Notes under the pieces: model-generated
The model's database searches: none
What the model was told of the DNA's origin: nothing
Seen by the model: the letters and a program-made list of their open reading frames with translations, nothing else
Part shown: positions 53,799 to 56,940 of the stretch, in pieces
Numbering within the stretch: position 1 is the stretch's first letter
Layout: each line of letters starts with the position of its first letter
Position numbers and translations under genes: made by a program
Assembly: GCF_016026235.1 (NCBI RefSeq)
Contig: NZ_CP065613.1
From: Escherichia coli
GTDB taxonomy: Bacteria > Pseudomonadota > Gammaproteobacteria > Enterobacterales > Enterobacteriaceae
Direction: 5' to 3' (one strand)
DNA length: 64,000 nt

Positions 53799-54126
53799 TT
53801 ATGTTGGCGTTTTCTATTCAGTATAGAAGTCGGAGCGGCTGGGCGAGATGCGGAAGTTCTGGAATGTTTCTTTTTTTGATGATGGTGACTGAAGCAAATT
53901 GGCTACATTTTGCAATGTGACCAGTTGCGTCATAGTTGGCTGGCGGCGAAGAATTTTGACGATTGCGGCATGCAGAAAAAAACGGGTTCAGCTTCAGTTG
54001 ATTAAATGAGGAGTGAGAAGTCCGAAACAGGATTCACTGTATAAATAAACAGCCATTTTGTTGAGGAAGGGTAAGATAACGGCGGGTGCCTGAAGCTTTC
54101 CGGTTTCAGGTTTACTCTGAGGTCTG

Positions 54127-54185
54127 GAAAGATGAAGCCCCAGGAGATATTTCTATCAACCCTGGGGCTGCCACTCCAAACCAGA
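54127..54185 (-). ncRNA. sokE: Putative Sok-type antisense RNA, hok copy 1
   Basis: Placed by analogy with known hok/sok loci (antisense to the mok leader 45-100 nt upstream of hok); exact ends were not determined. Confidence 0.35.
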
Positions 54186-54229
54186 CAATTTGGATGGTAG
54201 TTCCTTCTTCGCATGGAGGCAATATAAAC

Positions 54230-54382
54230 ATGCTGACGAAATATGCCCTTGTGGCAGTCATAGTGCTGTGTTTGACGGTACTGGGATTTACGCTTCTGGT
54301 CGGAGACTCGCTGTGTGAGTTTACGGTGAAGGAACGTAATATTGAGTTCAGGGCTGTTCTCGCTTACGAACCGAAGAAGTAG
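54230..54382 (+). CDS. hokE: Hok-family type I toxin (50 aa), copy 1
   Basis: [50 protein letters not shown]; overlapped in frame by a mok-like ORF starting at GTG 54086. Confidence 0.88.
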
Positions 54383-54404
54383 CCGTTGTGCGGGGAGTAA
54401 TCCC

Positions 54405-55698
54405 CTGAGGGATCCCCAGAAAATTTAGTAAACCATTATCATATTGGTATACCGTTGCTGTAGAACTTTCAGCCCTGCGTCAAGTGACAGTGTGTTTAGT
54501 ATGAGTGGAGAATGTCGAATCACATTCTCCGCCAGTTTTAATAACGAGATGACTCGCCTGTGCTTCACTGTATTTGCCTGATATTTATGATGTATCCCTT
54601 TGTTTTCCAGGCTGAAACCGCTTAACCACATAATGATACTGGCTAATGTTGCGATCAGACTCAATACCGTGACCCGCCCGGATGAATGACTGGCACCAAA
54701 CCGTAGTCCAAATCCCCAGCGAGGATTTTTTTCATCCCTGAAATTTTGCTCAATTTGCATTCTACGGCTGTATAATTTCATTACCTGTTTTGGCGAGAAC
54801 TCAGTACTGTTTGTGAAAATAAACCATGGTGATTTCCCGGCAGTACGAGCTTTAGCCGTCACCGATGGTCTGGTTGCTCTTTCCTTCGAGCGTTTAAATC
54901 TACGACCTTTAGGCTTACTTTTATAAAGATAAAAATGCCCTTCATGTTGTGCATTTTTATCTCGACCCAGCAGGCCTTCACCTAAATAAATTGCTGTCGT
55001 TGATGCTTTTGTGCCTGAGTCCGACACCTTTTCCCAGCCATTACCAACATTGTAATAATGATTGCCCAGTACCCGGCAAATATAGGTCCAGCCACGGGAG
55101 CGGAGCTGTTGGAACCATCGCCCCTGAAAACCGGCATCTGTAATAACAATGACATCAGTCCCGGGGGAAAAGCACTCAGCAAGCGATTCCAGAAAACGCT
55201 CATGTACATCTGCATTCGCTGTCTGTGATGATGGAACGACACAACTCATCAACGGTAAAGAACGCCCGTCACATGCCAGGCTTGCCCGCAAAAGCTGAAA
55301 ACGAGAGGCATGATAAGCACTCCAGTCAATGAGTATCACAACACGAGACATTCCCCGCGTAATCTTTTGGGTAATTCGCTGAAAAATGGTGGAAACCTCA
55401 TTTTGCAAATGTCGATTCCCCAACAGTCGATCCACCCGCTTTATTTTGTTTTTAACTGATGCCGTACCGGTTAAATGACGCCCGATACTGGTAAGTGTGA
55501 GGGAAGCGCCATTTATTACAGCATTAGTTGCGTCAATCAGTGATTTTTGACGGTAAAGATGCAAAGGGGCCAGTATATTGTTAAGGAAATTTTGGCATAA
55601 TGAACGTGCAGGCATAGTGGTGATCTCCTTGAAATTGTTAGCACAATCAATTAGATCACATCTCACTATGCCTGTCTTGTTTTCTGGGGATTCCTCAG
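54405..55698 (-). mobile_element. IS4-family insertion sequence, about 1.3 kb (IS186-like by position and target, IS10-like by ends and transposase)
   Basis: Imperfect terminal inverted repeats ctgagggatccccagaaaa / ctgaggaatccccagaaaa; flanked by a roughly 10-bp direct repeat (gagtaatccc); inserted in a GGGG-N-CCCC hairpin 22 bp after the hok stop; boundaries uncertain by 1-2 nt. Confidence 0.8.
54425..55615 (-). CDS. DDE transposase, IS4 family
   Basis: 396 aa from MPARSLCQNFLNN; DDE residues (VILIDWS, VITDAGF) and the YSRRMQIEQNFRDEK signature; the 568-aa track ORF is a read-through from flanking DNA. Confidence 0.85.
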   Translation of the reverse strand: MPARSLCQNFLNNILAPLHLYRQKSLIDATNAVINGASLTLTSIGRHLTGTASVKNKIKRVDRLLGNRHLQNEVSTIFQRITQKITRGMSRVVILIDWSAYHASRFQLLRASLACDGRSLPLMSCVVPSSQTANADVHERFLESLAECFSPGTDVIVITDAGFQGRWFQQLRSRGWTYICRVLGNHYYNVGNGWEKVSDSGTKASTTAIYLGEGLLGRDKNAQHEGHFYLYKSKPKGRRFKRSKERATRPSVTAKARTAGKSPWFIFTNSTEFSPKQVMKLYSRRMQIEQNFRDEKNPRWGFGLRFGASHSSGRVTVLSLIATLASIIMWLSGFSLENKGIHHKYQANTVKHRRVISLLKLAENVIRHSPLILNTLSLDAGLKVLQQRYTNMIMVY

Positions 55699-55932
55699 GA
55701 GTAATCCCCGCATATCCGGTTGTCAGGTCAGGATGGTAAGGCACCTGCTTTACACTTTCGCCCGCGGTCAGTGATGGCTGCGGGCGATTTCGTTTTAAGA
55801 GCAATGATGAGTTTTGCCGACAGAAGTCCGAAACAGGACTCACTGTATAAATAAACAGCCATTTTGCTAAGGAAGGGTAAGATAACGGCGGGTGCCTGAA
55901 GCTTTCCGGTTTCAGGTTAACTCTGAGGTCTG

Positions 55933-55992
55933 GAAAGATGAAGCCCCAGGAGATATTTCTATCAATCCTGGGGCTGCCACTCCGAGCCTCAA
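55933..55992 (-). ncRNA. Putative Sok-type antisense RNA, hok copy 2
   Basis: Homologous position to copy 1; exact ends were not determined. Confidence 0.3.
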
Positions 55993-56036
55993 CAACTCGG
56001 ATGGTAGTCCCTTCTTCGCATGGAGGCAATATAAAC

Positions 56037-56189
56037 ATGCTGACGAAATATGCCCTTGTGGCAGTCATAGTGCTGTGTTTGACGGTGCTGGGATTTACGC
56101 TTCTGGTCGGAGAGTCGCTGTGTGAGTTCACCGTAAAGGAACGTAATATTGAGTTTAAGGCTGTTCTCGCTTACGAACCGAAGAAGTAG
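56037..56189 (+). CDS. Hok-family type I toxin (50 aa), copy 2
   Basis: [50 protein letters not shown]; intact 3' hairpin gcggggagcaatccccgc downstream. Confidence 0.85.
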
Positions 56190-56310
56190 TCGTTGTGCGG
56201 GGAGCAATCCCCGCATATCCGGTTGTCAGGTCAGAGTGGTAAGGCACCTGCTTTACACTTTCGCCCGCAGTCAGTGATGGCTGCGGGCGAATCGTACCAG
56301 ATGTTGTCAA

Positions 56311-56940
56311 TTAATCGTGTTGGCACAGAGTTATGACTATTTTTTCTTTTATCTGCCAGTGCACAGCAAACATCTCATTCTCACGATGAATGATGACCTG
56401 CTGTTTATTCCAGCTAATTATCTGATAGTCCAGAAAACCTGCATCAGTTTGGATCTCACTTGCCTTAAATGCGCTCTCTTTGGCGGAAAATGCCAGTGTC
56501 AGCGCCAGAGAAAAGGCTAAACCGCAGTCTGCGAGTCGCTCGTGTTCTGCTGGTGTAATAATGTTGTCTGCCAATTCGGTCGCTGTTTGCGCAGAAAAAA
56601 TTTCTTCGATATCAACGCCAATCGGTTGACGGGAAACCACGGCCAATGCCGTAGCCCCGCAGTGGCTAATACTGCCGTATACCTCCGCAGGCCACACCGG
56701 TTGGCGTAGCTCGCCGATTGCGGGCACACATTTATAGCCATATTCCCGCAAGGCATAAACAGCAGCGATCCGTCCGGCTAAATGCTCTGTTTTACGTTTA
56801 CGTCCAGCGTGTTGCAGTTGTGCGTAGTGCGGCAGCCAGAGTAAATCCTGCTCACAAAAATTCGCCGGATCGAACTCAACAAAATGCAGCGTATGTCCGG
56901 CAAAGGGGAGGGAGGTATGCGTAGTTTTCATATCGACCAT
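56311..56940 (-). CDS. entD: Enterobactin synthase phosphopantetheinyl transferase
   Basis: 209 aa from MVDMKTTHTSLPFAGHTLHF; the track ORF is extended upstream into the REP region. Confidence 0.88.
   Translation of the reverse strand: MVDMKTTHTSLPFAGHTLHFVEFDPANFCEQDLLWLPHYAQLQHAGRKRKTEHLAGRIAAVYALREYGYKCVPAIGELRQPVWPAEVYGSISHCGATALAVVSRQPIGVDIEEIFSAQTATELADNIITPAEHERLADCGLAFSLALTLAFSAKESAFKASEIQTDAGFLDYQIISWNKQQVIIHRENEMFAVHWQIKEKIVITLCQHD

Follow-up and report, generated by a model that had tools for sequence, protein, structure and literature searches.

Which insertion sequence (IS) has settled behind the first hokE toxin gene of a tandem pair on the Escherichia coli contig NZ_CP065613.1, how did it get there, and what does it mean for the toxin gene? 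The stretch of DNA analyzed here, in the following called the window, comprises 64,000 nucleotides of this contig, an unremarkable piece of the E. coli chromosome (nfrA, nfrB, cus ... ybdK-hokE-entD-fepA). A preliminary description of the window had noticed an element of about 1294 bp that starts 22 bp after the stop codon of hokE copy 1 inside a palindrome, and had left open which IS it is. What it stated about the sequence itself is confirmed in full. The element is ISEc60, which belongs to the IS10 branch within the IS4 family, named here after the NCBI annotation of near-identical copies. We consider it very likely, with a probability of roughly 0.93, that an intact ISEc60 transposed into the hairpin of hokE copy 1 and thereby generated a 10-bp duplication, that it did so according to the target preference stated below, and that the mRNA of this copy is affected in the way outlined below. 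This is an ordinary insertion of a known element at a known recurrent landing site. The insertion itself can already be found in the annotation of a RefSeq genome. Little depends on this single event, and the hokE locus has long been known to collect such elements. Only mildly new are the target rule that we infer for ISEc60 and its overlap with the rule of IS186.

Identity of the element

A megablast search of 5,426 complete E. coli genomes revealed full-length copies of the element in only 14 of them. The best copies are 99.9% identical at the DNA level and annotated as “IS4-like element ISEc60 family transposase”; they are found in CFSAN029787, FDAARGOS_943, and the RMDEC and VL strains, with at least 38 places carrying the element in FDAARGOS_943. 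All full-length copies with about 99% identity whose sequence was read across both ends start with CTGAGG, end with CCTCAG, and have a length of 1294 bp; for two copies that are more degenerate (L040, L042), the alignment covers 1292 bp. The layout is that of an IS4-family element, with a 10-bp duplication and a single transposase open reading frame (ORF) between inverted repeats, which takes up 1191 of the 1294 bp.

The transposase has 396 amino acids and is 100% identical to WP_001111632.1; a frame of 568 amino acids in the ORF list of the window is the same transposase frame extended upstream of the true ATG. It scores 360 bits against NF033591 (cut-off 152) and matches PF01609 with E = 1.8e-20. 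The IS4 signature Y-(2)-R-(3)-E-(6)-K is present in YSRRMQIEQNFRDEK as Y282, R285, E289, and K296. In a three-way alignment with IS10A and ISSfl1, the residues D97, D160, and E289 as well as the Y282-R285-E289-K296 signature are invariant, and since these DDE and YREK residues are conserved, the enzyme looks catalytically intact. Among named elements, the transposase is 52% identical at the amino acid level to that of ISSfl1, 35–36% to those of IS10A and ISVsa5 over 93% of its length (E ~1e-63), and 32% to that of ISEc29. Clustering with IS10 and the CTGAGG termini place the element in the IS10 group. The assignment to the IS4 family with IS10-like ends and transposase in the preliminary description was therefore correct, and the identity that it had left open is now ISEc60. 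A phmmer search of the transposase against solved structures gave nothing meaningful, the Tn5 transposase being too distant for phmmer.

The leader of the transposase gene can be folded into a long hairpin. In transcripts that enter the element from outside, this hairpin would, by analogy with IS10, hide both the GGAG ribosome-binding site and the start codon ATG. A scan of positions 53800–56400 against Rfam at a permissive threshold yielded only two sok/hok leader matches and no match to the IS10-style RNA-OUT family, so that an antisense control like that of IS10 is unsupported by the Rfam scan.

Transposition into the hokE hairpin

The element is bordered by terminal inverted repeats, CTGAGGGATCCCCAGAAAA at the left and, read as reverse complement, CTGAGGAATCCCCAGAAAA at the right end. 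Both agree in 18 of 19 positions, which fits the imperfect repeats noticed before. Within the 64-kb window the end motif does not occur a further time, and none is expected by chance. On both sides the element is directly flanked by the perfect 10-bp direct repeat GAGTAATCCC, and the junctions read ...GAAGAAGTAGCCGTTGTGCGGG / GAGTAATCCC / CTGAGGGATCCCCAGAAAA ... TTTTCTGGGGATTCCTCAG / GAGTAATCCC / CGCATATCC... The palindrome GCGGGGAGTAATCCCCGC, which follows the stop codon of hokE copy 1, is thereby interrupted at exactly the distance from the stop codon that had been described.

That this repeat is a target-site duplication becomes clear from empty sites. A look-up of the HokE copy 1 protein led to E. 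coli loci in which the interval from ybdK to entD holds between one and three hokE genes in tandem. Three of them (L033, L036, L037) have two hokE copies and no insertion sequence, and contain the uninterrupted GTGCGGGGAGTAATCCCCGCATATCC; the first copy reads GTGCGGGGAGTAATCCCCGC without interruption and the second copy reads GTGCGGGGAGCAATCCCCGC. When the element and one 10-bp repeat are taken out of the window, the remaining sequence matches these loci without any gap through the junction, with 18–36 mismatches over ~1.24 kb. Due to this gapless match to empty tandem loci, GAGTAATCCC is a genuine target duplication. Judged from the same alignments, the tandem hokE locus is older than the insertion. 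Furthermore, the bases beside other copies of the element vary from site to site, which shows that the hairpin halves are not element sequence and that the ends of the element are fixed. From the homology to IS10 it can be assumed that ISEc60 transposes via cut-and-paste by a DDE transposase. In the window it entered the GC-rich palindrome located 12–29 bp past the stop codon of the first tandem hokE, duplicating GAGTAATCCC.

Target choice of ISEc60

For the target choice, the flanks of 18 insertions of ISEc60 or of relatives with 85–99% identity were compared, which were taken from complete genomes and an index of encoding contigs. The duplication has 10 bp at 16 of these sites and 11 bp at the other two, and thus differs from the 9-bp duplication made by IS10. 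Aligned on the duplication, the sites give the consensus g/G-R-G-N-W-A-W-C-C-C/c (slashes mark the borders of the duplication), which corresponds to GGRG-N4-CCCC with the cut placed one base inward from either end. In the sixteen 10-bp duplications the G at the first position is invariant, and C is present at positions 8–10 in 13–14 of them, which argues for a real preference of the transposase itself. At 12 of the 18 sites the target is part of a perfect stem with 5 or more base pairs, compared to 2.8% of random window positions (binomial ~3e-15), and the pattern G3+ N2-8 C3+ is likewise found at 12 sites, compared to 0.43% of random positions (~7e-25). According to the comparison of sites, the transposase prefers a symmetric target of approximately this consensus, which gives duplications of 10 and sometimes 11 bp. 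Such targets are mostly the stems of intergenic hairpins and terminators.

The strength of the preference can be seen from sites that have been used more than once. In one intergenic fimbrial hairpin on the chromosome, the strains of L007 and L009 carry the element in opposite orientations, and one plasmid hairpin carries ISEc60 in both orientations (L008, L042), where the duplication measures 10 bp or 11 bp depending on the plasmid. Small toxin genes also recur among the neighbors: ISEc60 is found in the post-stop hairpin of hokC next to dnaJ (L019, L028), in the hokB hairpin next to ydcA (L011, L012), where it forms a dimer flanked by GGAAAATCCC, and in the CFSAN029787 chromosome (L005, 221–300) in the terminator-like hairpin GCGGGGGAAACCCCGC just past an Ibs-family type I toxin gene. 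The 3' hairpins of small toxin genes in general seem to fit the ISEc60 target. The same consensus is found at sites that are unrelated to toxins (gatD-gatC, nupC, valS, fimbrial, and plasmid sites). In the plasmid pCFSAN029787_01 (L004, 184–2810), the plasmid hairpin that is used in both orientations contains an IS186 end followed by two head-to-tail ISEc60 copies with the 10-bp spacer GGTAAATCCC, the same 10 bp setting each of these elements apart. The dimer in the hokB hairpin has the same inner spacer, pointing to transposition of the dimer as a whole.

The literature that we found merely lists ISEc60 as a match, and no published account of its target choice was among it. IS10 duplicates 9 bp in NGCTNAGCN. 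With some reserve, we lean toward the view that ISEc60, unlike IS10, gained a preference for GC palindromes of about GGRG-N4-CCCC together with flexible 10–11-bp duplications, and that it converged in this respect on IS186, to which it is unrelated in sequence. If this is true, the post-stop hairpins of hokB, hokC, and hokE as well as other small-toxin terminators would be landing pads for two transposase lineages. The preference of ISEc60 may then also have directed a transposase-mediated deletion in a sister strain, from the element end to the neighboring paralogous hairpin. For annotators, the target rule helps to predict ISEc60 sites, for example in lineages with an expanded number of copies such as FDAARGOS_943.

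Overlap with IS186 at the hok hairpins

In a K-12-type strain, IS186 resides in the same hokE palindrome with the 12-bp duplication GGGAGCAATCCC, so that the preliminary description had rightly likened the position to that of IS186 at hokE of K-12. IS186 is also present at the same hokE position in L035 and L031, in the latter behind each of the two tandem genes, and its orientation there is opposite to that of the K-12-type strain. Since each of these duplications has the T or C variant of its own hokE copy, the insertions are independent events. The hokC hairpin contains IS186A in MG1655 with the duplication GGGAGTGATCCC, and a different lineage has ISEc60 there, duplicating GAGTGATCCC. The duplication of ISEc60 lies inside the 12-bp duplication of IS186, and both have the right boundary in common.

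The preference of IS186 is given as 5'-GGGG(N6/N7)CCCC in the statement on this element in PMC6925257, which cites saiSree et al. (2001), and the title of a 1986 paper by Sengstag, to which PMC3562002 refers, names a variable duplication length at one target. The hokE hairpin satisfies both rules, as GGGG-AGTAAT-CCCC fits that of IS186 and the nested GGAG-TAAT-CCCC fits the ISEc60 consensus, which is enough to explain two unrelated transposases at one site. GGGG-N6-CCCC had been named as target type in the preliminary description. The hairpin does fit this pattern, which is the published rule of IS186, whereas the consensus derived from the 18 ISEc60 sites is nearer to GGRG-N4-CCCC, with duplications of 10–11 bp. 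The two elements behave similarly in this respect, which does not make ISEc60 a member of the IS186/IS421 group. As their preferences overlap, ISEc60 and IS186 have each hit the hairpins behind hok stop codons several times and independently of one another.

Presumed consequences for the hokE mRNA

The two hokE copies of the window belong to hok loci according to the Hok_Gef ORF, the sok/hok leader (RF01794) with 80 bits for copy 1 and 86 bits for copy 2, the predicted closed 5'-3' stem of copy 2, the terminal hairpin, and the synteny ybdK-hokE-entD. The mRNA of copy 2 (404 nt) has a predicted fold that is far more stable than those of shuffled controls (z = -7.0). In the minimum-energy as well as in the centroid structure, the 5'-terminal GGCGGGUGCCU is base-paired with AGGCACCUGCU, which lies close to the 3' end, and the fold also forms a 9-bp post-stop hairpin and a 13-bp terminal hairpin. 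The hok gene of plasmid R1 possesses an fbi element, and by analogy the fold-back element of copies 1 and 2 can be taken as fbi. This corresponds to the architecture that the Gerdes laboratory reportedly described for hok mRNAs, in which folding back inhibits the mRNA and its 3' end is processed. Both features are also summarized in PMC3562002.

In copy 1 the post-stop hairpin is cut in two by ISEc60, which has also moved the terminator and the fold-back element 1304 bp downstream. Both hokE copies retain a complete ORF of 50 codons and an intact leader with its sok region, and nothing of copy 2 is affected. Transcripts of copy 1 would have to run into the element, antisense to the transposase gene, and could be ended by a terminator-like hairpin inside of it. 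Since fold-back element and terminator lie beyond ISEc60, the copy 1 mRNA could presumably no longer adopt the 5'-3' closed, inert, and 3'-processed form that is typical for hok loci. Copy 1 would then have lost the normal hok mRNA control and its pool of stable inert mRNA.

Alternative explanations

Locus, hairpin, size of about 1.3 kb, and target type all agree with IS186 at hokE and hokC of K-12, and the element might accordingly be regarded as IS186 (IS421) or a variant of it. There is practically no chance for this, because the termini are CTGAGG... instead of (C)ATAAGCGCTAACTTAAGGGTTG and the transposase is not of the InsL type. In the comparison with IS186 of a K-12-type strain, which had been suggested in the preliminary description, the transposases align over a 22-amino-acid motif around the YREK signature only (E = 0.008). 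Moreover, the duplication has 10 bp here and 12 bp for IS186 in the same hairpin, and NCBI gives the two elements different names. Just as negligible is the chance that we are dealing with IS10 itself or a Tn10 remnant. The transposase motifs IKR(V/I)DRLLGN and RMQIE, the length of about 1.3 kb, the single ORF, and the ends, which start with CTGA..ATCCCC as the termini of IS10 do, are in line with IS10. However, the identity to the IS10A transposase is far too low for the same element, ISEc60 makes 10–11-bp duplications in GGRG-N4-CCCC and not those of IS10 in NGCTNAGCN, and the next named relative after ISEc60 is ISSfl1. It is also very improbable that the direct repeat is something other than the footprint of transposition, either because the hairpin halves belong to extended inverted repeats of the element or because the whole arrangement arose by recombination between two copies. 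The flanks of the element do form an imperfect inverted repeat themselves (I3, 15 nt, 87%), and some ISEc60 copies elsewhere are without matching duplications (L015, L017), but the empty sites give back the palindrome exactly and the flanks of other copies vary. In addition, the two 10-bp repeats are identical here and both carry the T specific for copy 1, where copy 2 has a C.

More weight has to be given to the idea that insertion sequences accumulate at hok hairpins by selection for inactivated toxin loci and not by target preference of the transposases, even if we regard it as rather unlikely. In the ISEc60-rich lineage the hokB, hokC, and hokE hairpins all contain ISEc60, in K-12 both hokC and hokE contain IS186, one strain has IS150 elsewhere in the hokE locus, and one ISEc60 copy lies just downstream of an ibs toxin gene. 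Yet the same consensus is used at sites that have nothing to do with toxins, every toxin ORF is spared by the insertions, and the hairpin of copy 2 is unoccupied. Selection and target preference are not mutually exclusive. The preference for palindromes of a G-run and a C-run shared by both elements would explain the frequent insertions past chromosomal hok toxin genes without invoking selection.

Several points weigh against the account of an intact ISEc60 that transposed into the hokE hairpin and changed the fate of the copy 1 mRNA. The name ISEc60 comes from the NCBI annotation and not from a comparison with ISfinder, and cut-and-paste transposition with a hairpin intermediate is borrowed from IS10/IS50 by homology at only ~36% identity. 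Six of the 18 sites have no good hairpin, so that a hairpin is not required, and the sites seen are survivors of selection, so that the excess of intergenic hairpins is partly survivorship. For the copy 1 transcript that reads through to the internal hairpin, the predicted minimum-energy and centroid structures disagree on the partner of the 5' end, and this fold was not used. For gef/hokC::IS186, the locus is reported to be still transcribed, with a transcript that ends inside the element, and to be still under the control of antisense RNA (PMC3562002). Of the silencing of copy 1, which the preliminary description had considered likely, the displacement of fold-back element and terminator therefore stands, whereas silencing itself may only be presumed, and it is safer to speak of a loss of the stable inert mRNA pool. 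Finally, chromosomal hok loci have been reported to lack post-segregational killing even in the absence of insertions (bioRxiv 10.1101/2025.08.07.668861), and they may be functionally inert even without an insertion.

Features of the locus and the sister genome

The positions of all features in the window are listed in Table 1.

Table 1. ISEc60 and the tandem hokE genes in the window: positions and characteristics.
Feature	Position	Strand	Characteristics
Copy 1 hok leader and sok antisense region, untouched	54084–54238	+	Rfam RF01794 “sok”, 80.2 bits, E = 1.4e-17
hokE copy 1, ORF intact	54230–54382	+	50-amino-acid Hok-family toxin; PF01848; annotated HokE in FDAARGOS_943
Split post-stop hairpin GCGGGGAGTAATCCCCGC, left half	54390–54404	+	right half 55699–55711
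Target-site duplication, left	54395–54404	.	GAGTAATCCC; empty sites L033, L036, L037
ISEc60, complete copy	54405–55698	- (transposase strand)	1294 bp, 99.9% DNA identity over full length
Terminal inverted repeat, transposase 3' end	54405–54423	+	CTGAGGGATCCCCAGAAAA
Transposase gene, intact	54425–55615	-	396 amino acids; NF033591, PF01609
Terminator-like hairpin inside the element, hokE strand	54505–54532	+	11-bp stem, then CAGTTTTAAT; consensus match only
Long hairpin in the transposase leader	55609–55674	-	nested inverted repeats I9 (11/11), I10 (11/13)
Terminal inverted repeat, transposase 5' end	55680–55698	-	CTGAGGAATCCCCAGAAAA; one position unlike the other end
Target-site duplication, right	55699–55708	.	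GAGTAATCCC
Putative fold-back (fbi-like) element AGGCACCTGCT, copy 1	55739–55749	+	now 1.3 kb from the mRNA body
Copy 1 terminator hairpin and T-tract, displaced	55758–55797	+	13-bp stem, then TTTCGTTTTA
hokE copy 2, hairpin GCGGGGAGCAATCCCCGC intact and unoccupied (56197–56214)	56037–56214	+	Rfam sok match 55890–56045

FDAARGOS_943 shares the hokE insertion and its orientation with the window, and its element differs from that of the window at one base. Both genomes are identical over 2.2 kb upstream of the hokE unit and differ at 1 of 2500 bases downstream. However, FDAARGOS_943 (L001, 4910 onward) contains a single hokE, as it lacks exactly positions 55699–56201 of the window (503 bp): copy 1 is without its 3' part there, and the body of copy 2 is gone. 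The flanks of the element do not match, the left one being GAGTAATCCC and the right one GAGCAATCCC. The deletion extends from the right end of the element (within 3 bp) to the expected ISEc60 cut position in the copy 2 hairpin. Adjacent deletions mediated by the transposase have been described for IS10. Going by its endpoints, the 503-bp deletion fits such a transposase-mediated event. Unequal crossover between the two 3' regions, accompanied by co-conversion, would fit as well. In GCA_031665325.1 two ISEc60 copies (L015, L017) have no matching target duplications. These unmatched flanks are a sign of recombination between copies, and hence of rearrangements, in the lineage in which the element expanded.

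The two hokE units of the window (54010–55800 and 55824–56300) differ at 21 of 387 aligned positions, and one to three tandem units are found across L030–L037. The differences include apparently compensatory changes in the leader hairpin (CCAAACC-AGACAATTTGG versus CCGAGCCTCAACAACTCGG). Copy 2 has a mok-like upstream frame of 83 amino acids that runs in frame into hokE (55938–56189). The mok-like frame of copy 1 (54133–54200) is shortened by a 1-nt difference and ends with a TAG ~30 nt ahead of the hokE ATG; according to this reading of the frames, translational coupling in copy 1 may have differed already before the insertion. The units are connected by a 35-nt joint (55788–55823, TTTCGTTTTAAGAGCAATGATGAGTTTTGCCGACA), which provides the copy 1 terminator with its T-tract; in the last unit this T-tract is missing (GAATCGTACC). 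IS150 at hokE of E. coli GN03551 (L045, 1021–2390) was considered as a further hit on the hairpin and rejected, since it is located upstream of the ORF in the leader region; it represents another way of disrupting the hokE locus.

Comparison with known systems

The ISEc60 copies annotated by NCBI correspond to the element of the window in length, DNA sequence (99.9%), termini, and transposase WP_001111632.1. That of FDAARGOS_943 deviates by one base and stands behind a single hokE and not in a tandem locus. The closest other named relative is ISSfl1 of the Shigella flexneri virulence plasmid, which has nearly the same termini (CTGAGGAATCCCCAGAAAA), with CTGA...ATCCCC at both ends. In the one copy examined (L038, 319–1619), the duplication is the 9-bp CCTGAAGGG, in which the C-run precedes the G-run, so that the polarity of this single site is reversed. 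IS10 (IS10R of Tn10; IS10A) belongs to the same IS4 branch, has aligning DDE and YREK residues, a single transposase gene, and a hairpin over the transposase start. It is separated from ISEc60 by the low amino acid identity of ~36%, and ISEc60 is without an Rfam match to RNA-OUT. IS186 (IS186A/B; IS421 family) at hokE and hokC of K-12 uses the same post-stop hairpins and the same GC-palindrome type of target, spares the toxin ORF, is similar in size, and like ISEc60 varies in the length of its duplication. However, its termini and transposase are unrelated to those of ISEc60, its duplication in hokE has 12 bp (GGGAGYAATCCC) instead of 10 bp, and its target follows GGGG-N6-CCCC instead of GGRG-N4-CCCC.

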